Assembly: GCA_964462015.1 (NCBI GenBank)
Contig: CAYWXI010000004.1
Span: forward strand, 15,859 to 79,858
Length of the DNA stretch: 64,000 nucleotides
From: an uncultured Bacteroidales bacterium
GTDB lineage: Bacteria > Bacteroidota > Bacteroidia > Bacteroidales > JAEINX01
Direction of reading: 5' to 3'
This document shows, one piece after another, positions 631 to 48,999 of this stretch. The number at the start of each line of letters is the position of its first letter. Positions within the stretch are counted from its first letter, which is position 1. A model generated the notes under the pieces. That model was not told the DNA's origin. It made no database searches and saw only the letters and a list, made by a program, of their open reading frames with translations. The position numbers and the translations under genes were made by a program.

Positions 631-672
631 AAAAAACAAGGAACATTGAATAAGGAACAAGAAATCAGGAAT
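631..672. repeat. GAACAAG-word arm, left flank of the four-helix-bundle gene
   Basis: aaaaaacaaggaacattgaataaggaacaagaaatcaggaat. It is complementary in word content to 1067-1112 (654-665 pairs with 1067-1078 at 11/12). Confidence 0.6.
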
Positions 673-673
673 T

Positions 674-1027
674 TTACTGCTTAGCTGTTTCAATACTTTT
701 TAAATATATAGCTATCAATTCATTGTTTTCATTTATTATACTATCCATTTTATCAGGTTTTAATAATGGTTTTCTTTGGATGATTTTCAAGCAAATTCTT
801 GTTTCTCTTAGTTCTTTTAAAATAACTTTTAGTTTGTGTACAAAATCCTTTGTTGATTCAGCTGATTGGGCTTCGCCACAATTTAAAGCAGGGGAAGTTC
901 CACAACGGATTAATTGATTACCAATGTGGTTGCCCAACCTTGTATTTGGAAGAACCTCAACGATTTCACTAATTCGTATCGCAAAGTCGATTAATCTGTC
1001 TTCTAAGTCAAATTTTTTATTTGCCAT
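674..1027 (-). CDS. four-helix-bundle protein (23S rRNA intervening-sequence protein / Avd-like family)
   Basis: 117-aa ORF. Size and sequence (RLIDFAIRI...LPNTRLGNHIGNQLIRCGTSPALNCGEAQSAES..DFVHKL.I.LKELRET..CL) match the family as I remember it. Confidence 0.85.
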   Translation of the reverse strand: MANKKFDLEDRLIDFAIRISEIVEVLPNTRLGNHIGNQLIRCGTSPALNCGEAQSAESTKDFVHKLKVILKELRETRICLKIIQRKPLLKPDKMDSIINENNELIAIYLKSIETAKQ

Positions 1028-1066: not shown

Positions 1067-1112
1067 ATTTCTTGTTTCTTGTTTCTTGTTTCTTGTTTTT
1101 GTTCCTAATTCG
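1067..1112. repeat. CTTGTTT-word arm, right flank of the four-helix-bundle gene (complement of the left arm words)
   Basis: atttcttgtttcttgtttcttgtttcttgtttttgttcctaattcg. Tandem ttcttgt units. Confidence 0.6.
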
Positions 1113-2171: not shown

Positions 2172-2852
2172 TCACAACCGTAAATCACTTAGAACCAAAC
2201 TTAAAAAAGTCGGTTTAAAATTGAAAACCAATATATTTCTTGCCAGGTCAAATATTTTTACATTGGACTTGTCGATAACTACAGAATCGGAAGTAGCACA
2301 AATCCCTTTATTAAGGTTTATTAAGTTATAATCAGGAGAATGAACTGTTTTGGCAAAGCCGGAAATATTATTGTTTGCAAGAGTTTCATTTAGATAAGAG
2401 GATAATTCACCACTAAAACTTACCGGATTATCCAAATAAAATATGGTTTCTTTTGGATATAGAATTTTCAAATAATTAATAATTAACCCAATTGATTTTT
2501 GAAAAAAGTTATCGCGGAAAGCTTTTCCGTGAATCTCAGAAGCATCGCGCAAGAAATTATCATTCCCTACAAAAACTACATTTCCAAACAAGTAACTACT
2601 GATTGTTATTAAAACATTATAAGCATCTACATAAAGAGTATTGTTTTTTACATCTTCTATATCAATAATTTTTTTTTGTCTGTTTATTGCAATTTTCTGA
2701 GGTGCTATTCCTCTGAATAAAATTGTTCTTTCAACGGATGATAAAGAATATCTGTCGCAAATAATTTTTATTATTGCTTTTTGGGGGTATTTTTTGTCAA
2801 GCAAATACTGATAATCATTAATAGCATTTAGAAAATTTTCAGTAAAAGTCAT
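2172..2852 (-). CDS. conserved hypothetical protein, DUF434-like N-terminus
   Basis: 226-aa ORF. AINDYQYLLDKKYPQKAIIKIICDRYSLSSVERTILFRG resembles the DUF434 signature from memory. Function unknown. Confidence 0.6.
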   Translation of the reverse strand: MTFTENFLNAINDYQYLLDKKYPQKAIIKIICDRYSLSSVERTILFRGIAPQKIAINRQKKIIDIEDVKNNTLYVDAYNVLITISSYLFGNVVFVGNDNFLRDASEIHGKAFRDNFFQKSIGLIINYLKILYPKETIFYLDNPVSFSGELSSYLNETLANNNISGFAKTVHSPDYNLINLNKGICATSDSVVIDKSNVKIFDLARNILVFNFKPTFLSLVLSDLRL

Positions 2853-3028
2853 TTTATTTTCATTTAGTGGTCATTCAATGGTCATTTCCCCTTTTCCACT
2901 TATTTCATCTACTTCCCAATTAAAAAAAATTGTTTCATTGTTAATATAATACTGATTAGGCACAACATAAATTTTTCTGTATAAAGTTATAAAAAACATT
3001 AACTTTACACTCAAAAAAACTTCAAAAC

Positions 3029-3454
3029 TTGAAACTAATAATAATTAACGGACCAAATTTGAATTTGCTTGGAAAAAGAGAAACTTCGGTTTACGGTTCC
3101 ATCTCGTTTGAAGAATATTTAAGAAAACTGGAAAAACTCTTTCCGGATATTGAAATTGAGTATTTTCAAAGCAATATTGAAGGAGAAATAATTGATGCTT
3201 TACATAAAACGGGCTATTTGTTCGATGGAATTATTTTAAATGCAGGAGCTTATACCCACACATCTATTGCAATTGCCGATGCCGTAAAAGCTATCCCCGC
3301 TCCTGTTGTCGAAGTTCATATTTCAAATGTATTTTCAAGGGAAGATTTCAGGCATACTTCCTATCTTGCACCAAATTGCAAGGGTTCAATTATAGGATTT
3401 GGATTGGATTCATATAGATTGGCTATTGAAAGTTTTCTGATAGACACGAATTAG
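3029..3454 (+). CDS. aroQ: type II 3-dehydroquinate dehydratase
   Basis: 141 aa, TTG start. Has INGPNLNLLGKRE and HISNVFSRE motifs typical of type II dehydroquinase. Confidence 0.95.
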   Translation: MKLIIINGPNLNLLGKRETSVYGSISFEEYLRKLEKLFPDIEIEYFQSNIEGEIIDALHKTGYLFDGIILNAGAYTHTSIAIADAVKAIPAPVVEVHISNVFSREDFRHTSYLAPNCKGSIIGFGLDSYRLAIESFLIDTN

Positions 3455-3540
3455 TGTTCATCTATAAGCTTATAAAAAGACACGAATTTCACAAATTTAC
3501 ACGAATCTAAACTTTTTTGGCTTGTCCAGATTAGGAATGA

Positions 3541-3576
3541 GAAACAAAGAACAAAGAACAAGGAACAAAGAATGAG
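3541..3576. repeat. solo GAACAAA/GAACAAG word tract
   Basis: gaaacaaagaacaaagaacaaggaacaaagaatgag. Same word family as the arms flanking the 4HB gene 2.5 kb away. Confidence 0.6.
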
Positions 3577-8871: not shown

Positions 8872-8943
8872 TTGATAGTAATTTAATTGTAATTTCCTTT
8901 ATTTCCCATATTCCCCATATACCTACTGTTCTCATTATCTCCC

Positions 8944-10107
8944 CTATTTCCAAATCATTAGTTTTTCAAGTTTGGCTGTTGCACTTTCCCAATTATAATT
9001 ATTAATTATATATTTATAACCATTTTTGGCTAATTTTTCGGCTTTTATTGGATTTTTTAATAAATCAATAATAAGTGAAGCATATTCATCAGGTGAAGAA
9101 CCTATTAAAATTTCTTTTTCCTGTTCTGCTCCTAATGCATTATTTGCCAGTTGCGAAGTTATTGAAGGTATTTGCATTGCCATTGCTTCCAATAATTTAT
9201 TTTGCAATCCGGTTCCAATTTGCATGGGTGCAATAAATATTTTCGCTTTAGCATAACTTTCACGCATATCGTCAACCCATCCGGCAACCTTTACATTTTT
9301 CGAATCAAGAGCTAAAACGCTTTTATCAGGATTAGCTCCTGCCAACAGCAAATTGACTTCAGGCATTGTTTTATGAACTAACGGAAGGATATTTTTAACA
9401 ATATAAACCGCAGCTTTTGCATTTGGCGGATATCCCATATTTCCCGTAAAAACAAGATCATATTCTTTTTTCATTTCAAAAGGATGAAAAAAATCCGTAT
9501 CAACGCCGTTAATAACTATTTCGATTTTATGATTTTCGGAATGTGAAATTAAATCACGATCAGGTATTGATATAATTGTTTTATTATCAAATAAATCAAA
9601 AACAATTCTTTCGTAGGCCAAAACACGATTATATTCAATCCTGAAAAATGGTTTTAAATAAAACGGCGCTGAGTGAATTCGCCTTTCAATCCCTTTCGAA
9701 AAAACATCCTGATAATCTATGGTTTTTGAAATTTCCTGATCTTTAACATATTCAGCTACCCTGATCAATTGACAATAAATGTGATCGGGTTTATGTTTTT
9801 TAATCAGGTCATTTATCTTTTTCTTTGCTTTTGAATTATAAAAATACCCTACCTGAAAAGGTTTCCCAAACAAAAAGGCTTTTAAAATATTAAAGATTAT
9901 CGAAAACCTGGAAATTGTGAAAAAATTTATCGATTTACAATATTTTTGTAAAGTTTTTCTTGCTTCTATATGAATTTTCGTGTCATTAATTGCACAAAGA
10001 ATTATTTCATTATTTTTCGATAAGCAACGGATTTGATGAAAAGCGCGCAACTTATCACCTTTTTCTAAAGGGTATGGTATTCGGGGAAGGATTACGAAAA
10101 TTTTCAT
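8944..10107 (-). CDS. glycosyltransferase family 4 (GT-B)
   Basis: 387 aa. C-terminal GT1/GT4 region FIAPMQIGTGLQNKLLEAMAMQIPSI. Confidence 0.85.
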   Translation of the reverse strand: MKIFVILPRIPYPLEKGDKLRAFHQIRCLSKNNEIILCAINDTKIHIEARKTLQKYCKSINFFTISRFSIIFNILKAFLFGKPFQVGYFYNSKAKKKINDLIKKHKPDHIYCQLIRVAEYVKDQEISKTIDYQDVFSKGIERRIHSAPFYLKPFFRIEYNRVLAYERIVFDLFDNKTIISIPDRDLISHSENHKIEIVINGVDTDFFHPFEMKKEYDLVFTGNMGYPPNAKAAVYIVKNILPLVHKTMPEVNLLLAGANPDKSVLALDSKNVKVAGWVDDMRESYAKAKIFIAPMQIGTGLQNKLLEAMAMQIPSITSQLANNALGAEQEKEILIGSSPDEYASLIIDLLKNPIKAEKLAKNGYKYIINNYNWESATAKLEKLMIWK

Positions 10108-10177
10108 CTGTTAATATTTTTGTAACTGGCGCATATTTAAAAATTTGCGATTTTATTAAAAATTTGGTCTTCCCCCA

Positions 10178-10197
10178 AATTTCCAATTTCTAATTTC
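10178..10197 (-). repeat. (AATTTCY)3 heptamer tract, identical 20-mer to 18421-18440
   Basis: aatttccaatttctaatttc ends 3 nt from the stop codon of the upstream minus-strand GT4 gene (10201-10203). A local 8-bp hairpin pairs aaatttgg with ccaaattt. Confidence 0.7.
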
Positions 10198-10200
10198 ATT

Positions 10201-11394
10201 TCAAATTTCTTCATAAAACTTAACTAATTTTTGAATAATTTTCTCATTATCATATTCTTCTTCAATTAATTTTCGTGCATTCAATCCAATGGTTTCGCAT
10301 AATTCTTTTAATTTTATACATTTTTCTATTTGATCAACAAATTCTTCCGGAGTATTTGCAATCAAAATATTTTTATTTTCTTCATAATGAATTCCTTCAG
10401 CACCTAATTTTGTCGAAATAATTGTTTTACCAAGTGCCATTCCTTCTATTATTTTAATTCGTATTCCGCTACCCGAAAATAAAGGTACTATCATAATAGC
10501 TTTGGAATTAATAAAATCCCGGGCACTTCCAACCTCGCCAACAACTTCAACATTAGTTTTTTTGTTGTTAATCAACCATTCGGGCATTTCTCTACCTGCA
10601 AGATAAAATTTCAGTTCAGGCATTTTTTTATTTATCAAATCCCAGGTTTTATTTAGAAACCAATCAATTCCTTCTTCATTTGGCATCCAGTTCATTGATC
10701 CTATGTGAAACAAAGAAGGAAATTCATATTCATCATTTGACAAATGAAATTTATTCAGATTAATTCCAAAAGGAATATCAGTAATTGGCGTTTTCGTGCC
10801 TGTTTTTTTAAAAAAAACGGCATCGGTTTTTGTAATTGCAGCTATTCCGTCATACTTTTCTAAAGCCTCAAGCTCATAATTTTTAAGAGTTTTGCTAAGA
10901 TGAGATAAATAAAATTTCTTAATCGGATTTTTAGTAGTTTGAGTAATTCTATCCCAAATTATATGCTCAATATTATGGGCACGCAAAACAATTTTTGCAT
11001 TTGAGTGTTTACGAATTGTTTCAATATAAGGAGTAACATAAAGCGTTTCTAATTGAATTATATCGTATGTATTATTGTTAAGAATCTCAATGATTTTTTC
11101 GTCAAATTCTTTAGAAATAAATCTTTGAACATGATAGGATTTGGAAGAAAAAAGATTTAAAAAAGCATCTAACGGTTTTATTCTTAGATCAAGAAAAACA
11201 CCTTCTATTTGTGTTTTTTCTTTATAGTCATCAGGAATAGAATTAATATCGACGGAATATTTATAAGAATTAACTGCAAGAACCTTTACTTTATGGCCCG
11301 AATCAACTAATCCCTCAACAATAGTGTTCATAGCAATCGGGCCTCCTTCTTTTGGAGGATATGGTGATTTATTACAAATCAAAAGAATATTCAT
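10201..11394 (-). CDS. glycosyltransferase family 4 (GT-B)
   Basis: 397 aa. C-terminal MIVPLFSGSGIRIKIIEGMALGKTIIST motif. Confidence 0.85.
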   Translation of the reverse strand: MNILLICNKSPYPPKEGGPIAMNTIVEGLVDSGHKVKVLAVNSYKYSVDINSIPDDYKEKTQIEGVFLDLRIKPLDAFLNLFSSKSYHVQRFISKEFDEKIIEILNNNTYDIIQLETLYVTPYIETIRKHSNAKIVLRAHNIEHIIWDRITQTTKNPIKKFYLSHLSKTLKNYELEALEKYDGIAAITKTDAVFFKKTGTKTPITDIPFGINLNKFHLSNDEYEFPSLFHIGSMNWMPNEEGIDWFLNKTWDLINKKMPELKFYLAGREMPEWLINNKKTNVEVVGEVGSARDFINSKAIMIVPLFSGSGIRIKIIEGMALGKTIISTKLGAEGIHYEENKNILIANTPEEFVDQIEKCIKLKELCETIGLNARKLIEEEYDNEKIIQKLVKFYEEI

Positions 11395-12991: not shown

Positions 12992-13876
12992 ATGAAAATC
13001 CTTTACAACGAAAAATTCCTTAAACATAATGTCAATAGCAGTGCCGAAGGTGCCTATCGAATTAAAGATTTTAAGGATATTGAAAATACTGAAGCTGATG
13101 GTGAGAAATATTTCTCGTTAATTCACGATGCAGATTATATAAAAATGATAAAAGAGGCATGCATGAATAACGATATGCTTGCCGAAGTCCAACTTACAAA
13201 ATCTTCTTATGATGCAGCACGAACAGCAGTCGGATTAGCAATACTTGCTTCTGAGCAAAACGATTTTGCAGTTATTAGGCCTCCTGGACATCATGCCGGA
13301 AGAAAAAGAGCTGCCGGATTTTGTTTCTTTAATAATCTTGCAATTGCCACACAAAAACTTGTTAATGAAGGCAAAAAGGTATTTATCCTTGATTTCGACG
13401 GCCATCATGGCGATGGAACTCAAGATATATTTTATGAAACCGACAATGTATTTTTCTGTTCTATACACCAATTATATGCTTACCCTTTTTCAGGCATGGA
13501 AAATGAAAAAGGAGAAGGGCCAGGCGATGGATTTACAATGAATATTCCTTTAGTTGCCGAAAGCGGGGATAAAGAATTTTTGGCTGCGGTGGATAAAGCA
13601 ATAATGATGGCTGTAGATTTTAATCCCGATGTTATTGCCGTATCAGCAGGTTTTGATGCCTATAAACTTGACAGATTGCTCAATTTGAATTATTCCCTTG
13701 ATGCATTTTTTCAATGCGGTTTAAAACTTCGTCGTTCATTCGGGAATATTTTTGCAGTTCTTGAAGGAGGCTATCATTACGATATCAGAAAATGTGTCGA
13801 TAGCTTTATTGAAGGTGTAAACAAAGGCAACAATCCTCCAAAAAGCAATTGGAATCACGAAATGTCGATGGGTTAG
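12992..13876 (+). CDS. histone deacetylase-family (acetoin utilization / acetylpolyamine amidohydrolase-like) protein
   Basis: 294 aa. Motifs RPPGHHA, DFDGHHGDGTQ, EGGY. Confidence 0.9.
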   Translation: MKILYNEKFLKHNVNSSAEGAYRIKDFKDIENTEADGEKYFSLIHDADYIKMIKEACMNNDMLAEVQLTKSSYDAARTAVGLAILASEQNDFAVIRPPGHHAGRKRAAGFCFFNNLAIATQKLVNEGKKVFILDFDGHHGDGTQDIFYETDNVFFCSIHQLYAYPFSGMENEKGEGPGDGFTMNIPLVAESGDKEFLAAVDKAIMMAVDFNPDVIAVSAGFDAYKLDRLLNLNYSLDAFFQCGLKLRRSFGNIFAVLEGGYHYDIRKCVDSFIEGVNKGNNPPKSNWNHEMSMG

Positions 13877-14064
13877 GAAGAAAGTTTCGGGTTTCGGGTT
13901 TCGGGTTACGCCGTCTCTTCGTCTCTTTGTTTCGCAGTCTCTCCTTTCAGGTTTTCCTTCTCCGCTAAAGCTACAGCGGACAGGCAGGTTTCAGGTTACT
14001 TTTGACCTCCATCATTCCAAAACTCCACTATTCCATCACTCCATCTCCCCGTCTCTCCTTTCAG
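13877..14064. repeat. convergent intergenic region composed almost entirely of word repeats
   Basis: (gtttcgg)x3 at 13884-13904. gtctctcctttcag occurs twice (13937-13950, 14051-14064). ccatcattccaaaactccactattccatcactccatctcccc abuts the stop of the minus-strand gene. Confidence 0.75.
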
Positions 14065-15627
14065 CTAATTACCCAAAATCATTTTTCGCTTTACGTTTTG
14101 TTTTTCAGTTGATAGTGAAAAATAATAAATACCGGGGGCAAGATTATATTTTTGTGCATTAAACTGTTTTTCATATTTTCCGGCAGGCAAAAATTCATTA
14201 TTGATAATTGATGTAATTTTTCTTCCAAACATATCAAAAACCGATAAACTTACAACAGAGTGCTCTCTTAACTTAAATTTGAACCATGTATTATCAGAAA
14301 ATGGATTTGGATAATTTTGTTCTAAAGCAAAAGGAACAGACTCGAAATTATCAATTCCAACCCATTCGGAGTCAACTATTGCTGCCCAGACACTTCTTAC
14401 ACTATTTTCCATTCTTATCCAAACAGGCCGAATTACATTATTGTGTACTACAATGTTATTGTAGTCGCCGAAAAAGAGATTGGAATTTGGGATAAATGGC
14501 GACTCGCTGATTTTGAAATTTACAAATGTTTCTCCTCCATCTTTTGAAACAGCCATATAAACATCAGTAGAAGGATCATCATATTCACGTCTATCATAAT
14601 AAACAAAATAAATATAGCCTGTAATTTGGTCAACTGTCATCCATGTAAAAAATTGTTGCTTTCCGGCAGGATCATCATTTACCCGTTTTACATCACCCCA
14701 GGTTTCACCTCCGTCGGTGGATTTGATAAACCAAACGTCGGTGTCATCTATACCATTTCTTTGATCCGACCAATTTATATAGATGTTTCCATGAAATTCA
14801 CCATTACTTAAATCACAAACTGTTACAGGCAATCCATTGCAGCGGTAAATACCCGGGATTTCATAGGCCCATCCGTCAGGAATATCCGTTACAAAAATAT
14901 CGTCATCTAACCAGGTTTCTCCCTGATCAAGTGATTTATCGAAGACAAGGCCCAAAGGCCCGGCCCAGGAAACATATATTTCGCCGTTTGGCCCGACAGC
15001 CGGAACTGCACCCTCAACAGTATTATCATCATCAATGCAATCACCTGAAACCTGATTAATTTGCATGGCATCACTCCATGTTTCACCGGCATCTGTTGAT
15101 TTGGAAAACATTATATTGCTTTTATCCAAAGGATTTGGACTACCGTAATCATCAAACTGTGTCCAGGTAACATATATGTTGTTATTTGTTCGATCGACAA
15201 TTGCCCATTCTTTATCCTGGGCCTTAGTTCCATTCAAACCCATATAAGTCCCATTATTCCAAACTCCTCCGGGTTCATCAACTTTTTGGCAAACAATTCT
15301 GTCTATCCAGCTTCCCGATTGTGGATTCGATAAATGGAAAAAATAGAAACTTCCGGTAGTATCAGTAATGATGCAAGGATCTCCCCAAACACCATATTCA
15401 GGGGAAACTAAAGTTCCGGCAATCCAGTTATATCCACCATCTGTCGAATAAAAATATTTATTAGTATTGGCCCCTACTATCATTTGATCAGTGTTTTTTA
15501 AGTTTAAATAAATAGAAGGTTCATTTGGCCCATTGACATCACTTATCATTATATTTAAATGATATTGAGCTTGTGTGCTAATTACATAACATAAACTCAT
15601 TAAAATAAAAAGATATAGTTTTTTCAT
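14065..15627 (-). CDS. secreted BNR/Asp-box repeat (sialidase-like beta-propeller) protein with T9SS C-terminal sorting domain
   Basis: 520 aa. Signal peptide, Asp-boxes STDAGETWS, SLDQGETWL, STDGGETWG, SKDGGETF, and a C-terminal NYPNPF...YYFSL...KMIL sorting domain. Confidence 0.85.
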   Translation of the reverse strand: MKKLYLFILMSLCYVISTQAQYHLNIMISDVNGPNEPSIYLNLKNTDQMIVGANTNKYFYSTDGGYNWIAGTLVSPEYGVWGDPCIITDTTGSFYFFHLSNPQSGSWIDRIVCQKVDEPGGVWNNGTYMGLNGTKAQDKEWAIVDRTNNNIYVTWTQFDDYGSPNPLDKSNIMFSKSTDAGETWSDAMQINQVSGDCIDDDNTVEGAVPAVGPNGEIYVSWAGPLGLVFDKSLDQGETWLDDDIFVTDIPDGWAYEIPGIYRCNGLPVTVCDLSNGEFHGNIYINWSDQRNGIDDTDVWFIKSTDGGETWGDVKRVNDDPAGKQQFFTWMTVDQITGYIYFVYYDRREYDDPSTDVYMAVSKDGGETFVNFKISESPFIPNSNLFFGDYNNIVVHNNVIRPVWIRMENSVRSVWAAIVDSEWVGIDNFESVPFALEQNYPNPFSDNTWFKFKLREHSVVSLSVFDMFGRKITSIINNEFLPAGKYEKQFNAQKYNLAPGIYYFSLSTEKQNVKRKMILGN

Positions 15628-15827: not shown

Positions 15828-17495
15828 ATGAATGAAAATAATTTATCAGAACCCGGCAATTCCCGCTTAGTAAAATCTTCGTCTGGGAAAGGAAAAAAGA
15901 AACGACCCGGTATTCTTTTTTGGATCATTATTGCCATTATTCTGGGGACTTTGACAGGAGGATGGTTTCCTGAATTTGCTTTAAACTTTTCTATATTGGG
16001 AGAGGTATTCCTCAATTCACTGATGATGCTGGTTGTTCCTGTTGTAATGTTGTCACTTATTGTCGGTATCACCCGTCTGGGAAATATTCGTAATCTTGGA
16101 TCAGTAGGTGGCCGTACTATTGCTTATTATCTTATAACAAGTGGTATAGCAGTGATTGTAGGCATTATTCTTGTTAATATTATCAATCCCGGAAAAGGAA
16201 TACAACCGGGGGAAACTCATCCTGATTTCCATTATACAGTGGGAGGGAAAAACAACCGCACTGTATTTCTTTCAAATGAAAAATGGGAAAAAACCCGGTA
16301 CTCTGACAAATATAATATTGCGCTTATAGATCAGGCAGTACAAGGTGTTATTGAGTCATTTTCTGACACTTCAGTAACAGTAAAACTCTGGGAGAGCACT
16401 CATGCTGAAGAACAGTTTTATATCATTGCAGAAGATGGAACACAATTACAATTCAGCCGTATTGAACGGCAACTGGTTTCTACAGAACCGGAAATTACAT
16501 CATATGGAACCGGTTTAGAAATTAAATTTTCTATTACAAGCAAATTGAAAGGAGAAGAAACGGGAAACGTCGGTAAAACGCTAAAACAAATATTAACAGG
16601 TGATGAAGAAACCGGGAAACAGGGATTAATTCCAAGTAATATTTTTTCGGCAATGACCAATATGGATATTCTTCCGCTAATAGTTTTTGCGCTTTTACTT
16701 GGAGCAGCACTTTCGGTATTGGGGGAAAAAGCAAATTCTGCAATCAGTTTTATATCAACATTGAATGATGCTGTAATGAAACTTGTGCATTGGATAATGA
16801 TTGTCTCGCCGATTGGCATTTTCGGTTTAATCACTGCACGAATTGGCGTGGCCGGAGGTTTTAAAGATTTTCTCCCGGAATTAATATCACTCGGCAAATA
16901 TAGTATGACTGTAATGATTGGGCTGTTTATTCACGGATTTATAATTTTACCTCTAATTCTTAAAGTTCTAGGCAATAAAAGACCGGCTCCTTACGCTAAA
17001 GGTGTTGGTGCAGCCCTTTTAAATGCCTTCTCTACAGCATCAAGTACAGCCACCCTGCCATTAACTATTGAAGGTGTTGTGGAAGAAAATAAAGTATCCA
17101 ACAAAACAGCAAGCTTTATACTCCCTCTTGGAGCTACAATAAACATGGATGGAACAGCTCTTTATGAAGCTGTTGCCGCAATTTTCATTGCTCAGGTTTA
17201 TGGAATCCATCTTGAACCTGCCATGATGGGAGTTGTTTTCCTAACAGCAACACTTGCTGCTATTGGTGCCGCAGGAATACCTGAGGCAGGCCTTGTAACC
17301 ATGGTTATTGTTTTGAAAGCTGTTGGCCTACCTATTGAAGGTATCGGACTTCTGTTATCAATAGACTGGATGCTCGACAGATTCAGAACAACTGTCAATG
17401 TTTGGGGTGATAGTGTTGGGGCTGCTGTGATTGATAGTTTGGAAGAAAGGAAAAAGAGTAATATTAAAAAGTCAAACAACCATAAAGGATTTTAA
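15828..17495 (+). CDS. dicarboxylate/amino acid:cation symporter (DAACS/GltP family) with a large soluble insertion
   Basis: 555 aa. Family motifs (SSTATLP, NMDGTALYEAVAAIFIAQ, DRFRTTVNVWGD). About 140 extra residues lie between early TM segments. Confidence 0.9.
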   Translation: MNENNLSEPGNSRLVKSSSGKGKKKRPGILFWIIIAIILGTLTGGWFPEFALNFSILGEVFLNSLMMLVVPVVMLSLIVGITRLGNIRNLGSVGGRTIAYYLITSGIAVIVGIILVNIINPGKGIQPGETHPDFHYTVGGKNNRTVFLSNEKWEKTRYSDKYNIALIDQAVQGVIESFSDTSVTVKLWESTHAEEQFYIIAEDGTQLQFSRIERQLVSTEPEITSYGTGLEIKFSITSKLKGEETGNVGKTLKQILTGDEETGKQGLIPSNIFSAMTNMDILPLIVFALLLGAALSVLGEKANSAISFISTLNDAVMKLVHWIMIVSPIGIFGLITARIGVAGGFKDFLPELISLGKYSMTVMIGLFIHGFIILPLILKVLGNKRPAPYAKGVGAALLNAFSTASSTATLPLTIEGVVEENKVSNKTASFILPLGATINMDGTALYEAVAAIFIAQVYGIHLEPAMMGVVFLTATLAAIGAAGIPEAGLVTMVIVLKAVGLPIEGIGLLLSIDWMLDRFRTTVNVWGDSVGAAVIDSLEERKKSNIKKSNNHKGF

Positions 17496-17606: not shown

Positions 17607-18374
17607 TTATTTCTCCAACCACGCCTTAAAACTCTTCACTTTTTCGCGACTTACAATAATATCTTCATCGTTTTTTACTTTTAATTCAATTTTCAGGCGG
17701 CTGTTTGAATAGCTGATTATGTCGGAAATTGCTTTTAAATTAATAATATATTTTCTGTTTACTCTGAAAAATTCATCGGGATTTATAAGGCTTTCAATTT
17801 GTTCTAAAGAATAATCCAAAACATAATTATTGTTTTCACTTGTTTTTAAAAAACTTGCTTTTTCTAAGGAATAAAAACAACTGATGTCTTCAACCTGAAT
17901 AGATTTTATATGCTCGCCAACTTTTATCACAAAACGGCTTTTATATTCTTTTGTCAAAAGTTGCAAAACCTTATCGAAGGTTAAGTTTTTTGATGAAATA
18001 TTTTCAGGTTTCTTCTCAAAATATATTTTTTTAAACTTTTCGATAGCAGTTGAAAGTTCATCAAAATCAATAGGTTTTAAAAGATAATCTATGCTGTTAA
18101 CCTTAAATGCTTTTATTGCATATTGGTCGTAGGCAGTTGTAAAAATTATCGGGCTGGTGATTAGTGTTTTCTCGAAAATTTCGAAACTTAAACCATCGGC
18201 CAACTGAATATCCATAAAAACCAGGTCGGGAGGTGGGTTTGAATTAAACCATTTAACACTTTTTTCAACAGTATCGAATTTACCGAGAATTTCTACTTCA
18301 GGATCGTATTTAAAGATAAGTTCGAGTAAACGTTTGACAGCCAGTTGTTCGTCTTCGATTATAATTATTTTCAT
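17607..18374 (-). CDS. LytTR-family response regulator
   Basis: 255 aa. REC domain (DLVFMDIQLADG), C-terminal LytTR DNA-binding domain (FFRVNRKYIINL). Confidence 0.9.
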   Translation of the reverse strand: MKIIIIEDEQLAVKRLLELIFKYDPEVEILGKFDTVEKSVKWFNSNPPPDLVFMDIQLADGLSFEIFEKTLITSPIIFTTAYDQYAIKAFKVNSIDYLLKPIDFDELSTAIEKFKKIYFEKKPENISSKNLTFDKVLQLLTKEYKSRFVIKVGEHIKSIQVEDISCFYSLEKASFLKTSENNNYVLDYSLEQIESLINPDEFFRVNRKYIINLKAISDIISYSNSRLKIELKVKNDEDIIVSREKVKSFKAWLEK

Positions 18375-18388: not shown

Positions 18389-18440
18389 GAAATTAGAAAT
18401 TGGAAATTCAAGAGAGTCCAAATTTCCAATTTCTAATTTC
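18389..18440 (-). repeat. perfect 20-bp stem / 12-nt loop hairpin in the kinase-regulator intercistronic gap
   Basis: gaaattagaaattggaaatt (18389-18408) and aatttccaatttctaatttc (18421-18440) are exact reverse complements. The loop is caagagagtcca. Confidence 0.9.
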
Positions 18441-18445
18441 AAGTT

Positions 18446-19528: not shown

Positions 19529-19587
19529 CTTTCATGATTATTGGGTGATAAATTTATAAAAATTTGTTAATATTGAATTTATAAAAC

Positions 19588-19694
19588 CTGAAGTCTTCAG
19601 TCGTCAGTCTGCAATCCTCAATCCACATACCGCCAACTGTTGATTGTTGACCGGACTGCCAACTGAAGACTGATGACTGCCGACTTCCAACTTC
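19588..19694. repeat. GAAGTC/CAGTC word inverted-repeat region abutting a stop codon
   Basis: agtcttcagt (19592-19601) pairs with actgaagact (19662-19671). The surrounding words are gtcagtc, gactgcc, gacttcc. The tract ends at the base before the stop of 19695..20330. Confidence 0.7.
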
Positions 19695-20330
19695 CTACAT
19701 GCTACAATTTTTAATCAATTCTTTTGTATGTTTCATGCCCCAGTTTGGCGAAATTTCGCTTTCGGGTTTAAAAGATTTATATTTTTCAAGAGCAATTGTA
19801 AGTATCGGGCATGCAATAGCCATTCCACCTCCAAATTGTACAGGAGTATGTAAAAGATTTTGTCCCAATAAATAATATGGCCTTGGGTTGTCAGGATTTA
19901 GGGCTTTTGCTTTCTCTAAGCAGGCTGTAGCTTTCTGTGAAAAAGTCATTCCTCTTGTTTGTGGATCGACCATTATTCTGCCCTGACATAAAAATCCTTG
20001 CAGAGTTTCAATTTCTGAATTATTAGGGCTTAAGCGATTTGCTTCATCAATCATTTTTTGGGCTTCATCTAAGTATTGATCACATTTTTCTTTTGCAGAA
20101 AAGCTCATGTTAATTGTGCAAAATGCCGAATAATAATAAGGTAACCATTTTTCTTTTTCGGCTTTTGCAATTCTTTCGAATTTGTTTGCAAGCTCCTGAA
20201 AATCATTAGATGATTTTGCTTTTTCAATACAATTGATGTTCTTTTCCATTTCTTCTCTATAAGTTTCTTCATTTGCGAAAACAGTCAGGCTGAAGATAGC
20301 CATTACGATAATTAATACATTTTTTTTCAT
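19695..20330 (-). CDS. secreted helical (TPR-like) hypothetical protein
   Basis: 211-aa ORF with a signal peptide (MKKNVLIIVMAIFSLTVFA). Helical repeat character, no catalytic motif recognised. Confidence 0.6.
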   Translation of the reverse strand: MKKNVLIIVMAIFSLTVFANEETYREEMEKNINCIEKAKSSNDFQELANKFERIAKAEKEKWLPYYYSAFCTINMSFSAKEKCDQYLDEAQKMIDEANRLSPNNSEIETLQGFLCQGRIMVDPQTRGMTFSQKATACLEKAKALNPDNPRPYYLLGQNLLHTPVQFGGGMAIACPILTIALEKYKSFKPESEISPNWGMKHTKELIKNCSM

Positions 20331-20504
20331 TTTTTATAAATTTTAAATTAATAACATTGAATTATTGTTTGTTTGATTTCATTTTTACTGAAATTGTTCG
20401 TGTGTTTATAATTTGTTTCTCGCTGATTTCGCTGTTTGCTTTCTGCGATTATCTGCGCAATCTGCGGGAAATATATTTGTTTTACAATCATTCTCTTATA
20501 TGTT

Positions 20505-22646
20505 TTATATCGAAATAAACACCCCAAGAAATACAAATCGCTTTGCCCCGGATTTAACAGGAAATGATTTATATACTCCTTCGTTATTTGGTTTTGAGCT
20601 ATAATGATAGCCATAGATATTATCAATCCCGAATATATTTCCAACTGAAAAATATATAATTGTAAATTTCTTAAAGATATTTGTCAAATAACTTACATTC
20701 AGGCTTAAATTATTGTAAGAACCGGTTTTATCACTCAAAAAATCCGGGTTGTTCGGGTTGAAATATGTTCGTCCGCTACTAAAAGAATAAGTAGCTCCAA
20801 ATTGAGTGTACAAAATTGGAACATACCATTTTACTACAGTTGACAGATTATGAGTTGAAACAAATGTAGGTGTAGCAGATACCGGATAATCAAGATAATT
20901 TCTTTCCGTATCGATAAATGAATATGACACCCAATATTCAACATTATCAATAGTTTTATTATCCCTCCAAAAAAAATCAATTCCTTTTGCATATCCATTT
21001 CCGGTATTGTTATACGAATCGGGATTTGATGAGTGAAGACTGTCGTATTTTACTAATCTGTGATATTTTTTATAATAAGCTTCTATTCTGAAAACCCTGT
21101 CGTTTTTTATCATCTGATAATTAAAAATGAAATGATTTGCTGATTCAAAATCAAGATCATTATTAAAAACAAGATAGTTGTTTTGTGGATTTTGAAAAAA
21201 CTTCCCATAAGCAAACGATACCTGACTTTTCTTTCCCGTTTTATATGCAAGTGAAATTCGGGGTGCAAGATTTATTTTCGAAAGCAATGAGGAAAATTCA
21301 AAACGGCTACCTGCCCTGCCAGCAAATTTGGTTCCGAGTGCAATTTCGGTTTCTGCAAAAACAGAACTGATATTATCACTAAATAAAGATTTATAGTTTT
21401 CGTTTTTATTGTTATCAAAATATTTTTGCGAATAATTTCTATTAACAAAGTCACTTCCAAACTTTAGTTTTATTTCTTCGCTAAGCAGATGAGTCAGCGT
21501 ATATTTTCCTTGAAAAGAATAATTGTTTTCCGTAAAATTATCAAGATCAATATCAGTATTATCATTATTATATGAAAATGAAACTCCGGCTTTAGAAATC
21601 CATTTTTCAGATAAAATATCACTGTAAGTTAAATTTAAATATGAGTTGTCATTAATTAGTCCGATATTATTTTTATTACCAATATCATCGAAATCAGGAT
21701 AAGATAGTTGTGATTTGCCATGCGAAAATGAGCCAAAGAACTTAATTAGACCGTTTTTGCCTGTTTTTTTTCTTGCAATCACATTTCCTCCAATTCCCAT
21801 TGGGGGAGTTTTCCAATCAAAGTCCTGATTTATGAGATTATAATAAGGTGCTAAATTTGTATAACTTACCTCAGCTGACACTGATGAGCGATCCCATCGT
21901 TTTGTATGTGAAAATCCTGCACCAACCGACATCAGCGAGATACTTGAAACACTTCTTGGAGGCAGATCATTGGTGTTTAATACTAATGCTGAAGACAATG
22001 CCTGTCCGAATTCAGCTGAATAACCTCCTGTGCTGAACATTGTTCCGCTAAAAAGAAATGGCGAAAAGCGGCCTCTCACAGGAACATCCGGCATTTTCGA
22101 GGTATATGGATTTTCGACCAACATTCCGTCAATGAAAGTTTTTGTTTCGTAGCCATCACCACCACGAACAAAAATACGTCCATCCTCACCAACTGTCTGA
22201 GTCCCGGGAAGTGTGTTCAAAGCTCCGTAAATATCACCAAGTCCTCCGGCGGTTGTAACAATATCGAGAGGTTTTAAAACGACGGCTTTTTTCTCATCTC
22301 CGGCTTCAAATGAACCTGCCGAAATCACCACAGCATCCAATTGATTATTGCTTTCTTTCAAAATTATATTTAATTCAATATCTTTTTCTTCAAGAATGAT
22401 TTCTTTGGAAAAATTTTTATAACCCAAAAAACTAACTATAAGTGTTTGTTTTCCTTTAAGTTTTGTCATAAAATTATAAGCCCCGAAGTTGTCGGAGGAA
22501 GTTCCATCGTAAGAATCAAGAAAATAAATATTTGCTCCGGGCAGCGTTTCACCCTTTTTATCGCTTACAATTCCTGATATTTTTGTTTGACCGATGGTGT
22601 TTGTTGCTGCTATTAGAATAATTATTGAAACGAGTAATTTTTTCAT
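20505..22646 (-). CDS. TonB-dependent outer-membrane receptor with N-terminal carboxypeptidase-regulatory-like domain
   Basis: 713 aa. Signal peptide, ISGIVSDKKGETLPGANIY (CarboxypepD_reg-like), a plug region, and long beta-barrel-type alternating sequence. Confidence 0.85.
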   Translation of the reverse strand: MKKLLVSIIILIAATNTIGQTKISGIVSDKKGETLPGANIYFLDSYDGTSSDNFGAYNFMTKLKGKQTLIVSFLGYKNFSKEIILEEKDIELNIILKESNNQLDAVVISAGSFEAGDEKKAVVLKPLDIVTTAGGLGDIYGALNTLPGTQTVGEDGRIFVRGGDGYETKTFIDGMLVENPYTSKMPDVPVRGRFSPFLFSGTMFSTGGYSAEFGQALSSALVLNTNDLPPRSVSSISLMSVGAGFSHTKRWDRSSVSAEVSYTNLAPYYNLINQDFDWKTPPMGIGGNVIARKKTGKNGLIKFFGSFSHGKSQLSYPDFDDIGNKNNIGLINDNSYLNLTYSDILSEKWISKAGVSFSYNNDNTDIDLDNFTENNYSFQGKYTLTHLLSEEIKLKFGSDFVNRNYSQKYFDNNKNENYKSLFSDNISSVFAETEIALGTKFAGRAGSRFEFSSLLSKINLAPRISLAYKTGKKSQVSFAYGKFFQNPQNNYLVFNNDLDFESANHFIFNYQMIKNDRVFRIEAYYKKYHRLVKYDSLHSSNPDSYNNTGNGYAKGIDFFWRDNKTIDNVEYWVSYSFIDTERNYLDYPVSATPTFVSTHNLSTVVKWYVPILYTQFGATYSFSSGRTYFNPNNPDFLSDKTGSYNNLSLNVSYLTNIFKKFTIIYFSVGNIFGIDNIYGYHYSSKPNNEGVYKSFPVKSGAKRFVFLGVFISI

Positions 22647-29417: not shown

Positions 29418-29541
29418 AGACTAAATATTTTTCCTTCCGTTTTTTATTACATGCTCATTGAAATTTTAATTGTTGAAATAATTTGATCATTAAGATTCCT
29501 GAGACCATTTTGAGTTTAATTTCCATCTCTCCATCTCTCCA

Positions 29542-31646: not shown

Positions 31647-32078
31647 TACTGATAAAAATTGGTATTACAAAAATAGTAAATTATAGTTTAATGAAACTTG
31701 AGATTAGAAATTAGTCCTGAGCATTCAGCAATTTTCAATTGGTAATTGATTATTGTCTATTGCCTGCCCATCTGAAATATAATGAAGGCGGGATTATTAA
31801 AAAATTGTTATTCAGTATGATAAATGAATTATGGTGATAATTTTACTTTTTGTGTATTTTGAGTCTTAGAGCCTTAGTGGCTAATTTTTCTCTAATTGCC
31901 ACAAAGACACCGAGGCACTAAGGTTCATAAAGAAAACATCAAAAAAACAACCATCATATTTTATATTGGTATTTACGTTTTTAATAGTTTGATTATTTAT
32001 TCATTACCATATTTTTTGCTAATTATCTTATCTATAAAAAATCACTGAGTATTCGGGAAGAAATTCAGAAAAAATCCA

Positions 32079-32105
32079 AATTTCTAATTTCTAATTTCCA
32101 ATTTC
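32079..32105 (-). repeat. (AATTTCY)4 heptamer tract directly abutting a stop codon
   Basis: aatttctaatttctaatttccaatttc ends at the base before the ClC gene stop (32106-32108). Same word family as 10178-10197 and 18389-18440. Confidence 0.7.
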
Positions 32106-36468: not shown

Positions 36469-36616
36469 TTAGTATGATTAACTTTCATATTTACATATAT
36501 TTTTTACACCATTATACTTCTATAGCTCTATGCACATAGCAAATAGAATTTGATGATAAAAAATATTTTATATGATAAAAAATATTTACTTTTATCGAAT
36601 AATTAAAAGCAAATTA

Positions 36617-38134
36617 ATGAAGAAATTCTCCATAATTATAATATTTGTTCTTTTTGGATGCTCTCAATTGTTTTCGCAAAGCCGAATACAATCGCGTATT
36701 TTGCATTCATTAAGCGATGATGAATCTATTATTTATCATAAAATGCAAAGTTTGATTGTTGATGATTCTCAGGTTCATTCCCTTTTATTTACTGAAAAAA
36801 AAACTTCATCAGGCACAAAACAATTTGCAATATTAAATGGAGAAATCTATGGCCCTTACGAAAATATTTTCTTTAGTAAAGAAACAGCTTTTATAAACGA
36901 CAGCACTTATACTTACAACTTTTTTCAAAACGGTGAAACTTTCATAAATGTTAACGGAGATATTTTTGGCCCTTATAATTTAATTGATGTTAATATTATA
37001 TTTTTTGATAACGGAAAGTTTTATTTTAATTATCAAAAAGATTTTCTCTGGTATTCAAATTTTGATGGTGAAGAATACGGGCCATTCCCGGAGGCTCCTG
37101 TTTTTTCTCAAAATGCAGCTTATTATTATTCGTTTGATCGCTATGGAATTAATTTCGTGAATGTTAATGGTGCAGAATACGGGCCCTTCGATAATTTTTC
37201 CGACTTTAATGTTAATGACAATGGAAGTTTCTATTATAGGTTTTCAAAGGAAACTATTTCTTATATAAATATTAACGGCGAAACGTATGGACCTTACGAA
37301 GATGTTAATAATATAGTAGTTATTGACAGTGTGAATTTTGGTTTTGAAATCAAACAAGGAAATAATTGGTTTGTTAATGTCAAAGGGAAAATTTTTGGTC
37401 CTTTTGAAAAGGTAAACGGCCTAACAATCAATCCTAATGGTGATTATTATTTCAATCTAATACAAAAAGGAAAAGAGTTTACAAAAATTAATCAATTGAT
37501 TTTTGGCCCTTACGATAATATTAGCAATCAGATATTAACTGATAGTAGTTATTATTGTTTTATTTATATTAAAGAACGACAAAACTATATAGTTATTAAC
37601 GGAGAGATGTTTGGCCCATATTTGAATATTGATGAATTAATGGTCAAAAACTCCGGTAAATATAGGTATAGCTATACGCAAGACGATATGTATTATGCAA
37701 ATATCAACGGAGAAGTTCTTGGCCCATTTGAACAAATTATTAGTATGGCGATGGGTGAAAATGGTGATTATAGAATTTATTTCAAACAAAACGGAAATTA
37801 TTATGCCCTTGTTTCACAAATAATTTTCGGCCCTTTTGATTATAACTTTTCTTCCTTTAGAATTTCACCTTTGAATCATGAAGATTATTGTTTTAAATAT
37901 CATGAGGGTGTAAATATTAATGGAAAAGAATATTTATCGAATCCTAATGTTATTTGGAGTTATGATTGCCTTCACTTTTTCAGTTACGATAATTTCAGCC
38001 TTGACTTAATAATTGATGGAATATTTTATTATAATTCGGGTGGTTTTAGGTATGTTTATGTACCAGTTCAAAATAATGTTAAATGGCTATCATTAAATGG
38101 CCGGAAAGTATTATTAAATAGTTGTGATTTTTAA
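36617..38134 (+). CDS. lipoprotein with about 11 copies of an NGxxYGP[YF] repeat (unassigned repeat family)
   Basis: Start moved to ATG 36617 (MKKFSIIIIFVLFGC lipobox). Repeats include INGEIYGPY, VNGDIFGPY, FDGEEYGPF, VNGAEYGPF, INGETYGPY, VKGKIFGPF, spaced about 36-42 aa. Confidence 0.7.
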   Translation: MKKFSIIIIFVLFGCSQLFSQSRIQSRILHSLSDDESIIYHKMQSLIVDDSQVHSLLFTEKKTSSGTKQFAILNGEIYGPYENIFFSKETAFINDSTYTYNFFQNGETFINVNGDIFGPYNLIDVNIIFFDNGKFYFNYQKDFLWYSNFDGEEYGPFPEAPVFSQNAAYYYSFDRYGINFVNVNGAEYGPFDNFSDFNVNDNGSFYYRFSKETISYININGETYGPYEDVNNIVVIDSVNFGFEIKQGNNWFVNVKGKIFGPFEKVNGLTINPNGDYYFNLIQKGKEFTKINQLIFGPYDNISNQILTDSSYYCFIYIKERQNYIVINGEMFGPYLNIDELMVKNSGKYRYSYTQDDMYYANINGEVLGPFEQIISMAMGENGDYRIYFKQNGNYYALVSQIIFGPFDYNFSSFRISPLNHEDYCFKYHEGVNINGKEYLSNPNVIWSYDCLHFFSYDNFSLDLIIDGIFYYNSGGFRYVYVPVQNNVKWLSLNGRKVLLNSCDF

Positions 38135-38293
38135 TATTCAATGGTAATATGATAGAAACACGATGGTATTACGATTGAAATACAATAGAAATTCAATGGT
38201 GATTAATGGCGTTTTACGCAATTTAACCAATTAACATTAACTAAAGTTTGCAATTTAACATACAATACTTTAGCTAATGTGAGTTCGAGAGTT

Positions 38294-48785: not shown

Positions 48786-48800
48786 GAATAGGATGCAGGA
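47392..48800 (+). repeat. 1.4-kb direct repeat, copy 1 (shared 3' region of the T9SS paralogs)
   Basis: Aligns with 49748-51156 at a constant offset of 2356 nt with no indels. The translated copies differ at only 5 of the last 430 aa. Confidence 0.9.
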
Positions 48801-48999
48801 TACAGGATACAAGTTACAGGATACAAGATACTTGAAACCCGAAACTATAAATTTTATCAAAAAAAGAGAAGAATTTATAATAAGTAAGATAAATATTTTT
48901 TCATGCGTTTGCCCTGATAATACCACTTTTTATAATATATCTAAATTAAGGAAAGTTTATTGCAATTCAAAAAAAAATTTGTATATTAGCACAAATGTT

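Follow-up and report, generated by a model that had tools for sequence, protein, structure and literature searches.

The stretch of DNA analysed here, called the window below, covers 64 kb from an uncultured Bacteroidales bacterium, whose genome is sampled by this window only; its G+C content is 33% and 86% of it is coding. We are concerned with tracts of short words, reiterated head to tail, that adjoin stop codons: by eye, such a tract starts 0-3 nt past the stop in 12 of 40 genes of the window. An initial annotation of the sequence had listed a number of these tracts, and every one of them was found again. The focal example, positions 13877-14064, is the entire 188-nt spacer between two convergent genes, 12992..13876 on the plus strand, which encodes a deacetylase-family protein (84-85% identical in the closest species representatives of the genome collection), and 14065..15627 on the minus strand, whose product is a BNR-repeat protein with a type IX secretion (T9SS) sorting domain. 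With arrays called by Tandem Repeats Finder (TRF) at periods 5-20, the features of the spacer are the following.

13877..13907, plus strand: GAAGAAAG(TTTCGGG)3 array, then TTAC, directly past the TAG of 12992..13876 (TRF period 7, 3.4 copies, 100% match).
13908..13950, no strand assigned: pyrimidine-rich words (CGTCTCTT twice, end ...GTCTCTCCTTTCAG), the older copy of an internal duplication of ~110 nt.
13945..13991, no strand assigned: core, a small hairpin CCGCT-N8-AGCGG followed by ACAGGCAGG; a dispersed element.
14007..14064, minus strand: octamer array (TGGAR + 3 nt)n abutting the TAG of 14065..15627 (TRF period 8, 4.9 copies).

In the sense of its own gene, 12992..13876, the first array contains G 10 and C 3. 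The octamer array has C 26 and G 2 among the 58 nt of its plus strand, is unstructured, and ends in a second GTCTCTCCTTTCAG at the stop; GTTTCAGGTTAC lies between it and the core. The two halves of the spacer are a diverged, nested duplication of about 110 nt: the direct-repeat families D1 and D3 of 13908..13950 match 14038-14064 at 79-89%, and the 14-nt direct repeat GTCTCTCCTTTCAG is part of this internal duplication, no target-site duplication being recognised. A conserved structure was rejected for the spacer (z of +0.7 on one strand and -0.5 on the other, relative to shuffles). The core is 89% identical over 47 nt to positions 8314-8360 of the locus L115 (E 2e-8), where it sits in a non-orthologous convergent spacer beside a pyrimidine-rich heptamer tract overlapping a stop. 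In the related locus L005, the orthologous pair of proteins is 84% and 82% identical to ours and ends in the same last residues, but the spacer measures ~34 nt and contains no tract. Hence, we concluded that the focal spacer grew in this lineage, from one stop to the other, while the C-termini stayed unchanged. Its sequence is identical in four independent Logan assemblies.

The null model for the abundance of arrays was the shuffling of each spacer. The 9 kb of intergenic DNA of the window hold 26 arrays, against 6.3 +/- 2.2 in the shuffles, which is an approximately 4-fold excess; coding DNA holds 29, against 18.2. In terms of density, this makes 2.9 arrays per kb of intergenic DNA and 0.53 per kb of coding DNA. 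More than half of the intergenic arrays (14/26) have a period of 7 or 8, with 2.8-6 copies, as at 13884, 14007, 29522, 32079, 48790 and other sites. As the window alone gives low power, the same pipeline was run on 21 related Bacteroidales loci, and the pooled set used below consists of the window and these loci (L005-L025; 365 kb, longest open reading frame (ORF) gene calls), with 88 intergenic arrays in total. The intergenic excess in the related loci is similar to that of the window. Periods 7, 8 and 14 account for 40-43% of the arrays in the window and the related Bacteroidales, against 17% in outgroup loci. The units themselves are those of each genome. The word GAAATTNGAAATT has 9 matches at 3 loci of the window where 0.17 are expected, and merely 2, a chance-like number, in 84 other Bacteroidales loci; L012, L014 and L018 each reuse a repeat unit of their own. 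Three-unit arrays of GAAATTNGAAATT are also contained in metagenome contigs of 25-64% G+C.

The arrays are concentrated at stop codons. In the window, where we counted arrays lying at most 5 nt from a stop and took as null their random placement inside their own spacer, 6 were found and 2.5 expected (P=0.013). In the pooled set, where abutting means within 8 nt and 4000 permutations were made, 25 of the 88 arrays abut a stop, against 11.3 +/- 2.4 expected, and none of the permutations reaches 25. The initial annotation had proposed to compare stop-proximal with start-proximal DNA: on the pooled loci the enrichment is indeed found at stops (25 against 11.3) and not at starts, which 10 arrays abut where 8.6 are expected. 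Array density in the same set is 4.0 per kb in convergent spacers, 1.9 in co-directional and 1.7 in divergent ones; one thus also finds arrays in divergent spacers and beside start codons.

The position is in fact finer than mere proximity. Measured from the end of the stop codon, the arrays start at a median of -1 nt (range -9 to +7), and 13 of 22 overlap the stop. The triplet found one period past the stop differs from the stop by at most one substitution in 12 of the 22 arrays, against 23% of control ends (P=0.001), and the unit-length segment ending in the stop agrees with the unit after it at 51% identity, the control segment, one unit further upstream, reaching 35% (P=0.013). Examples of this register are ttggaaTGA/TGGAGAGA/TGGAGAGA after aspS and gagTAGGAAT/AGGATGC/AGGATAC after two secreted-protein paralogs. 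This means that the first, degenerate unit of an array is commonly the stop codon itself, since the stop and the units that follow it are in register.

The arrays are also oriented. In the sense of the upstream gene, G exceeds C in 20 of the stop-abutting arrays of the pooled set and the reverse holds in 3 (P=0.0005); the mean G-C skew over the first 60 nt past the stop is +0.26 at array-bearing ends and -0.03 at 205 array-free ends taken as reference (P=1e-5). The polarity is 15:1 in co-directional spacers and 5:2 at convergent ends, and of the 7 arrays in four additional congener loci, 6 keep it. With the G-rich strand of each array as reference, the nearer ORF is the one on the 5' side, with medians of 35 nt against 96 nt (58 arrays against 20, P=2e-5). 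The tracts had initially been described as frequently purine-rich. This stands for 13 hand-picked tract-bearing ends of the window (0.61 against 0.50, P=0.0016) and does not stand for the arrays called in the pooled set (16 against 8, P=0.15), so that the G>C skew is the robust descriptor and purine-richness the weaker one. The polarity goes with the gene, whichever chromosome strand that is on, and reverses within 100 nt in the focal spacer; a replication-strand bias is ruled out as its cause by this reversal with gene orientation, and the general composition of 3' flanks is ruled out by the skew of -0.03 at array-free ends. The composition of a Rho utilisation (rut) site, some 60-80 unstructured nt with C in large excess over G, is absent in the sense of the upstream gene, where G exceeds C, and is seen on the opposite strand, for instance at 14007-14064 (C 26, G 2). 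G-quadruplex-capable units (at least four runs of three or more G) were looked for by eye, and most units (GAAATTR, GGATACA, TGGAGAGA) are without GGG and have GG runs only.

We then compared gene ends between congeners whose AspS is 92-94% identical to that of the window, obtained via protein search. The turnover of tracts at orthologous ends that had been anticipated is found: different families occupy the ends of aspS and of the 520-aa gene 36572..38134. L207 and L209 (AspS 93-94% identical) have a G-rich tract directly after aspS, of a family AGGTATA / GGGAAATA / AAGGAAAT unlike the tract of the window, and L210 (92% identical) has no tract there; after the 520-aa gene, words of ~11 nt in the window face (GTCATTN)n in L209. 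At the end of the CLC gene a (GAAATTN) element is present in both, with arms of 4 and 1 units in the window and of 1 and 3 units in L209. Copy number differs between congeners also in the tract upstream of the DUF434 gene, about 50 nt long in the window (2853..2900) and 119 nt in its orthologous counterpart in L115. Some families recur at other loci: a palindrome at 18389..18445 matches an element of the non-syntenic L100 at 91% over 55 nt, and the tract 20412..20470 has related copies in L100 and L209, at other loci, the L209 copy being an inverted pair. Given the gene ends of L207, L209 and L210 and the copies in L100 and L115, we concluded that the position persists while the words turn over and the families move between loci. 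Hypervariable microsatellite behaviour finds no support within the strain, whose assemblies from five sequencing runs do not vary, nor do L207 and L208 differ from each other.

The arrays also mark the ends of contigs. Independent short-read assemblies (L212, L205, L206), 100% identical to the window, end at 1069, in an array, or at 18419, in the loop of a palindrome, which shows that heptamer repeats fragment metagenome assemblies at gene ends. In practice, such arrays break short-read assemblies there, and they make the non-coding spacers of metagenome-assembled genomes appear longer.

The other tracts of the window are listed below.

640..673, minus strand: (AAYAAGG)-type heptamers, 3' arm of an inverted pair enclosing a gene, abutting the stop of 674..1027.
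1068..1103, minus strand: (CAAGAAA)5 array, 5' arm of the same pair, 40 nt upstream of the start of 674..1027 (TRF period 7, 5.3 copies).
2853..2900, minus strand: (GGTCATT)-type tract abutting the start of 2172..2852 on its upstream side.
3530..3575, plus strand: (AACAAAG)4.3 array in a convergent spacer, 88 nt past the stop of 3029..3454.
8881..8943, minus strand: G-rich, purine-rich tract (GGTATA / GGGAAATA / AAGGAAAT) after 8944..10107 (glycosyltransferase), filling the spacer to the next gene.
10150..10200, minus strand: (GAAATTR)n array overlapping the TGA of 10201..11394, its last unit being a 13-bp hairpin followed by UUUUUAAUAAAAU.
18389..18445, minus strand: palindrome of (GAAATTR)3, loop CAAGAGAGTCC and inverted array, between the genes of a histidine kinase and a LytTR response regulator.
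19585..19694, minus strand: long imperfect palindrome of (NNNCAGT / GGAAGTC)-type heptamers, starting at the TAG of 19695..20330.
20412..20470, minus strand: CGCAGAT / AGCGAAAT word tract, 35 nt past the stop of 20505..22646.
29515..29541, minus strand: (TGGAGAGA)2.8 array after aspS, the stop-containing unit TGGAATGA being in register with it.
32060..32105, minus strand: (GAAATTR)4 array adjoining the TAA of the CLC channel gene, with a degenerate loop and a single inverted unit.
38135..38210, plus strand: word tract of ~11-nt period (ATTCAATGGT ...; TRF period 11) after 36572..38134, the 520-aa gene.
48786..48831, plus strand: (AGGATAC)6 array, the TAG of 45765..48785 belonging to its first unit.
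51142..51180, plus strand: paralogous (GGATACA)3.7 array after 48775..51141.
54438..54573, no strand assigned: two (GAAGTCR / AGACCGA) heptamer arrays forming an inverted pair, with 80 nt between them, midway along a 1.5-kb divergent spacer.

The tract 640-673 is the sole exception to the strand polarity in this list, and 2853..2900, which adjoins the start of 2172..2852, means that tracts are not confined to 3' ends. The family of 8881..8943 is that of the tracts at the aspS and tricorn-protease ends of L207 and L209. Some details of the initial annotation had to be amended. The word AUUCAAUGGU is present near the 520-aa gene and elsewhere as reported, at 38136-38145, 38191-38200 and 2873-2882 and not at 38142, 38197 and 2871; the gene given as 36617..38134 has 36572..38134 as its longest ORF; and GGAGAGAUGG, thought to be common to the aspS tract and to 14007-14064, has an exact match after aspS only, the latter tract containing GGAGAGAcGG and GGGAGAUGGAG.

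Structurally, the tracts fall into two classes, single unstructured arrays and long palindromes built from inverted arrays. Strong palindromes are found in four tracts, with z from -4.5 to -7.8: 18375-18448 (23-bp stem, dG -24.8, z -7.4), 19585-19697 (dG -54.7, z -7.8), 54430-54579, the inverted pair of the divergent spacer (dG -51.9, z -6.6), and the hairpin 10150-10203 (dG -11.9, z -4.5). The others are single arrays without structure (8872-8946, 29490-29544, 48783-48860 and the focal spacer), most of them with z >= 0; 8881..8943 folds worse than its shuffles, with z +1.5 over 8872-8946. The aspS and tricorn-protease tracts of L209 were rejected as a true hairpin (z -0.7, not significant), being mirror-oriented arrays and not a palindrome. 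A conserved core with a variable spacer inside the units, as a binding protein would call for, is unsupported among 20 arrays (3 with P<0.05; Fisher combined P=0.07), whose position-specific conservation is no more than higher-order slippage yields. A search of Rfam gave no match at gathering scores, and at E <= 1 two chance-level matches, neither of them in a tract; no tRNA or tmRNA was found in the search made for them. The 64-kb window contains no gene for a transposase, Y1 transposases included, or for a reverse transcriptase.

Canonical terminators, made of a hairpin and a U-run, had been noted as not evident at the tract ends. They are indeed lacking there, but they are equally lacking at most other ends of the window: in its first 20 kb we found 12 such sites for 11.6 expected, which is no enrichment, and the 13 tract-bearing ends, which resemble the tract-free ones in this respect, give 3 weak terminator matches, one of which is the heptamer palindrome itself. 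The only tract with a U-run 3' of it is the hairpin 10150-10203, whose tail is U-rich. At least 7 of the 13 tract-bearing ends lie in the short co-directional spacers of likely operons, among them those of a glycosyltransferase pair, of the histidine kinase and its response regulator, and of the secreted-protein paralog pair, so that a general role as terminator is unlikely. Clear intrinsic terminators can be seen at ~40080-40115, 3' of 40155..41534 (15-bp stem, dG -18.2, flanking A and T runs), and at 17540-17600, where a hairpin pair of canonical type lies between the convergent genes 15828..17495 and 17607..18374; both sites look bidirectional. Weaker sites were found at a few other ends.

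Other observations touch on the repeats of this region. The adjacent secreted-protein-type genes share a 1430-nt segment at 97.4% identity (47394-48823 and 49750-51179). Its end falls 38 nt beyond each stop, within the (AGGATAC)n tract, whose two copies are ~80% identical; as the right boundary of the duplicated segment falls in the tract, the array is the junction of a tandem duplication. A different sort of array, of a 42-nt unit in 10.4 copies (81% match, 84-nt higher-order period), occupies 53696-54133 inside the 1.5-kb divergent spacer, and another 42-nt unit is found in 2.8 copies at 51352-51463, 3' of the second secreted-protein paralog; the ORFs 53606..54211 and 51266..51559, called across these arrays, are probably spurious. 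In the 3' spacers one can also notice clusters of 5-7 small G+C-rich stem-loops (e.g. CCCTGTACGAAGTGCAGGG, AATCCTGAAAGGATT, CCACAGGTTTCACCTGTGG) at 29180-29420, 52340-52620 and 33990-34090. The first two are inverted copies of one dispersed element, with 83-88% identity over 48-92 nt; the clusters have no Rfam match, and a single hairpin gives a sub-threshold match to Acido-Lenti-1 (E 0.19).

The gene 674..1027 encodes a protein of PF05635 (23S rRNA intervening-sequence (IVS) protein, a four-helix bundle) and lies between (AACAAGR)n at 640-673 and (TTTCTTG)5 at 1068-1103. The duplex of these two arms has dG -41, which places it among the top 1.5% of flank pairs. All four of the other PF05635 homologs in the fetched loci (sites at L007 ~4270-4804, L014 ~17875-18900 and L087 ~2200-2900) also lie between inverted word arrays, whose units differ, with dG -56 to -117. 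The cassette, present in the window, is absent from the orthologous spacer of L115, no target-site duplication being recognised. It looks like an IVS-like, possibly mobile, stem-enclosed cassette outside rRNA. That the tracts in general are halves of gene-enclosing stems was rejected, since cognate flank pairs are no better than non-cognate ones (P=0.25), this gene being the sole exception.

In L209, two neighbouring genes each have GACGCTGATTA(A/T)TAT directly past their TAG stop, in the spacers 4941-5242 and 6611-6767. The first of these spacers ends in an inverted copy, AATCAGCGTC, and the orthologous spacers of the window are short and without the element. This arrangement suggests a MITE-like element (miniature inverted-repeat transposable element) of ~300 nt that may have inserted exactly at the stop codon.

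Much longer arrays than those of the window exist in distant Bacteroidales of 45-54% G+C. In L025, (GCCGTTA)5 and (AACCCTGG)16 fill a convergent spacer from stop to stop (13512-13671), and (AGCATCAA) is present at ~26-33 copies in a divergent spacer (17103-17366). L012 has (GACCAAT)10 at 19177-19262; the unit of this array, (ATTGGTC)n on the other strand, is what we take to be a cyclic permutation of the unit TTGGTCA of STRR2, one of the cyanobacterial short tandemly repeated repetitive (STRR) sequences, or of its reverse complement.

What do the tracts represent? They are real, oriented and statistically solid, and they add one more example to a known kind of bacterial repeat; they do not form a new class and, most probably, are not terminators. 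Their excess, their position, their register with the stop, their orientation, the expansion of the focal spacer between fixed C-termini, the turnover of families and their dispersal are all observed. To account for them we favour, with middling confidence, a passive explanation: tolerated, spreading long simple sequence repeats (SSRs; the STRR or long-SSR class), in lineage-specific families of 7-8-nt units, which do not act as terminators. An array would be born by slipped-strand or tandem duplication, often of a segment containing the stop codon; we infer slippage as the generator. Some families would also spread from spacer to spacer as short elements, some of them palindromes of two inverted arrays. 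Arrays flush with the stop would persist because this side of the spacer, having no promoter or leader, offers nothing to disturb. The orientation that survives would be the one that puts the G-rich, C-poor strand in the transcript of the upstream gene, and two causes may contribute to it: the seeding by stop triplets, which contain no C, and an RNA-level filter, most plausibly one against unstructured, C-rich and G-poor RNA, on which Rho would load once the ribosome has left, with polar effects. The tracts would then be transcribed passengers of 3' untranslated regions (UTRs) and of intercistronic regions. That they are products of slippage or insertion at gene ends, one of the possibilities raised at the outset, fits the register with the stop, the expansion of the focal spacer between fixed C-termini, and the turnover of families together with their recurrence elsewhere.

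Several observations weigh against this explanation. The same ends (aspS, CLC and the 520-aa gene) are occupied by different families in congeners, and such repeated occupancy could reflect selection for some tract at these ends and not mere tolerance. Convergent ends, too, display the polarity (5:2 in the pooled set and, in L207 and L209, the mirror-oriented tracts after aspS and the tricorn-protease gene), and a filter confined to the protection of operons would have no effect at such ends. No mechanism of dispersal was identified, there being neither transposase nor reverse transcriptase in the window. Independent assemblies of the strain display no copy-number polymorphism, and high rates of slippage are therefore not demonstrated. 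Finally, (GAAATTN) arrays in unrelated metagenome contigs have no clear orientation bias after stops, with 10 sense and 8 antisense in a hand count.

The first rival explanation, which we regard as unlikely, makes the tracts strand-specific Rho platforms. Antisense or convergent read-through RNA, C-rich, G-poor and unstructured over the array, with a pyrimidine-C step every 7-8 nt, would load Rho and so shield the gene; in convergent spacers each tract would be the Rho-dependent terminator of the other gene. The polarity of 20:3, specific to the arrays, agrees with it, as does the peak of array density in convergent spacers (4.0 against 1.7-1.9 per kb). The octamer array offers C 26 and G 2 on the very strand read by the convergent transcript of the deacetylase gene, the convergent ends of L207 and L209 have mirror-oriented tracts, and the window has few canonical terminators. 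Were the signal one of composition alone, it would moreover account for a position and a polarity that last while the words turn over. But in AT-rich units such as YAATTTC no more than 1-2 of the 7 nt are C, and the palindromes, being strongly structured, are unfit as loading sites. Rho lets go of the transcript tens to hundreds of nt past the point where it loads, that is inside the gene to be protected, and the closest relative manages without the focal tracts.

Just as unlikely, in our judgement, are functional RNA elements of 3' UTRs and intercistronic regions, that is, arrays binding a protein or blocking or guiding ribonucleases and so setting the stability or processing of the upstream message, with palindromes serving as RNase III sites or exonuclease barriers like the repetitive extragenic palindromic (REP) elements of E. 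coli. The orientation is set relative to the upstream gene, the tracts immediately adjoin the stop and are kept at orthologous ends in congeners, and the four palindromes are very stable (z -4.5 to -7.8), all of which this explanation would welcome. It does less well with the lack of any motif common to the families or of a conserved core in the units, with the absence of Rfam matches in the tracts and the structureless single arrays, with the tract-free orthologous ends of L005 and L210, and with the arrays of divergent spacers.

A broader proposal, which we consider rather improbable, is that the arrays are orientation-locked, composition-only transcription insulators, for which any 7-8-nt unit would do provided that its C-rich, G-poor strand is directed towards the tail of the gene. 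If this were true, Rho would halt antisense and convergent polymerases at gene ends in a lineage with few hairpin terminators, while the gene's own G-rich, Rho-proof transcript would continue into the operon. Simple sequence repeats would then be a selected, rapidly renewable class of terminators, and the heptamers of Xanthomonas and Nostoc, described below, would be explained too.

Equally improbable to us is that the tracts are non-autonomous elements of the MITE or REP type, moved by an enzyme encoded elsewhere (e.g. a REP-associated tyrosine transposase (RAYT) or an IS200/IS605-like Y1 transposase) that would target stop codons or T-A-rich DNA, the tandem words being secondary. Near-identical copies at non-orthologous loci (55 nt at 91%, 47 nt at 89%) and the palindromic architecture of several elements speak for mobility of this sort, and so do the PF05635 cassette, with its inverted-array borders, present in the window and absent from the L115 spacer, and the L209 element, whose terminal inverted repeats GACGCTGATT...AATCAGCGTC start exactly at the TAG of a gene. 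Against it, the window has no transposase, no target-site duplications were recognised, and the units of most arrays are specific to the locus and in register with its stop, which indicates growth in place.

That the tracts are this lineage's substitute for intrinsic terminators, the other function initially envisaged, is very improbable: hairpin and U-run sites are indeed not enriched (12 against 11.6) and the hairpin 10150-10203 has a U-rich tail, but clear canonical terminators exist (after 40155..41534 and at 17540-17600), most tract ends are inside likely operons, single arrays cannot fold and are not followed by U-runs, and arrays are found in divergent spacers and at starts as well.

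Several known systems are comparable to the tracts. REP sequences and bacterial interspersed mosaic elements (BIMEs) of enterobacteria are short, dispersed, imperfect palindromes located after stops and between convergent genes, and they form part of the transcript of the gene upstream. Each genome has a single conserved REP consensus, in hundreds of copies, and REPs are associated with RAYT transposases. The likeness concerns a subset only, the stable extragenic palindromes 18375-18448, 19585-19697, 54430-54579 and 10150-10203. In our case, however, the arms are tandem word arrays of many families, 4-5 of about 20 tracts are palindromic, and no RAYT is encoded in the 64 kb.

The cyanobacterial STRR are tandem heptamers, intergenic, in families of units specific to each genome. 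The window's arrays have the properties of this class and of long SSRs: a unit of 5-11 nt repeated head to tail in about three or more copies, an intergenic excess, a dominance of heptamers, and the recurrence of units across loci. The long SSRs of Mrazek et al. 2007 have units of 5-11 nt and, as MacGregor 2015 cites that work, heptamers are the commonest of them and polymerase slippage is the proposed cause (PMC4679880). Here too the heptamer is commonest, the arrays are intergenic, the families are genome-specific and slippage is the proposed origin. The descriptions of STRR and of long SSRs cover abundance and typing, and are not known to report a register with the stop codon or a polarity relative to the transcript.

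MacGregor 2015 described arrays of TAACTGA and of other heptamers in Beggiatoaceae, Cyanobacteria and five Bacteroidetes, some of the latter having assemblages of several heptamers; some sets overlap stops, close relatives have shorter, repeat-free spacers, and contigs end inside arrays (PMC4679880). Intergenic direct heptamers, repeat-free relatives, contig breaks and overlap with stops are all found here as well. Unlike our arrays, which are in excess at stops, the sets of the Beggiatoaceae genome lie mostly just upstream of starts, in one orientation, and TAACTGA is not a unit of the window, although the NNNCAGT heptamers have its ACTG/CAGT core. The initial annotation knew of no formal description of such tracts; this was mistaken, as heptamer arrays of Bacteroidetes are reported in that paper and stop-proximal, strand-biased heptamers in the one considered last (PMC4692102).

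Rehm et al. 2015 found the heptamers GGGAATC and GGGGA(C/T)T repeated in the intergenic DNA of Xanthomonas and Nostoc, with a strong bias towards places 0-50 nt from a stop or overlapping it, and with the G-rich strand being the coding strand (PMC4692102). Those repeats are nearer to the 5' ORF, rare between divergent genes, and sometimes arranged in inverted pairs able to form stem-loops; their position is conserved across related species while length and sequence vary, and they are without accepted function (PMC4692102). The arrays of the window are likewise intergenic, of few units, stop-proximal and G-rich in the coding sense, and the closeness of the ORF on the 5' side recurs (35 nt against 96 nt, 58 arrays against 20), as do the scarcity between divergent genes, the inverted pairs, and the position that related species keep while length and sequence change. 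The difference is that a single G-quadruplex-capable unit dominates the genome there, whereas many unrelated units (GAAATTR, GGATACA, TTTCGGG, TGGAGAGA, NNNCAGT and others), mostly without runs of three or more G, are present here, in an AT-rich uncultured Bacteroidales. Gene-adjacent heptamer arrays have been known for decades from cyanobacteria, xanthomonads, Beggiatoaceae and some few Bacteroidetes, with no accepted function, and the same rules (flush with the stop, in register with it, the G-rich strand in the sense of the gene) now hold in an unrelated, AT-rich clade of Bacteroidales. As they hold with many different units, the cause should be a general one, mutational or linked to transcription, and not the property of one sequence; orientation-dependent effects of Rho are what it predicts.

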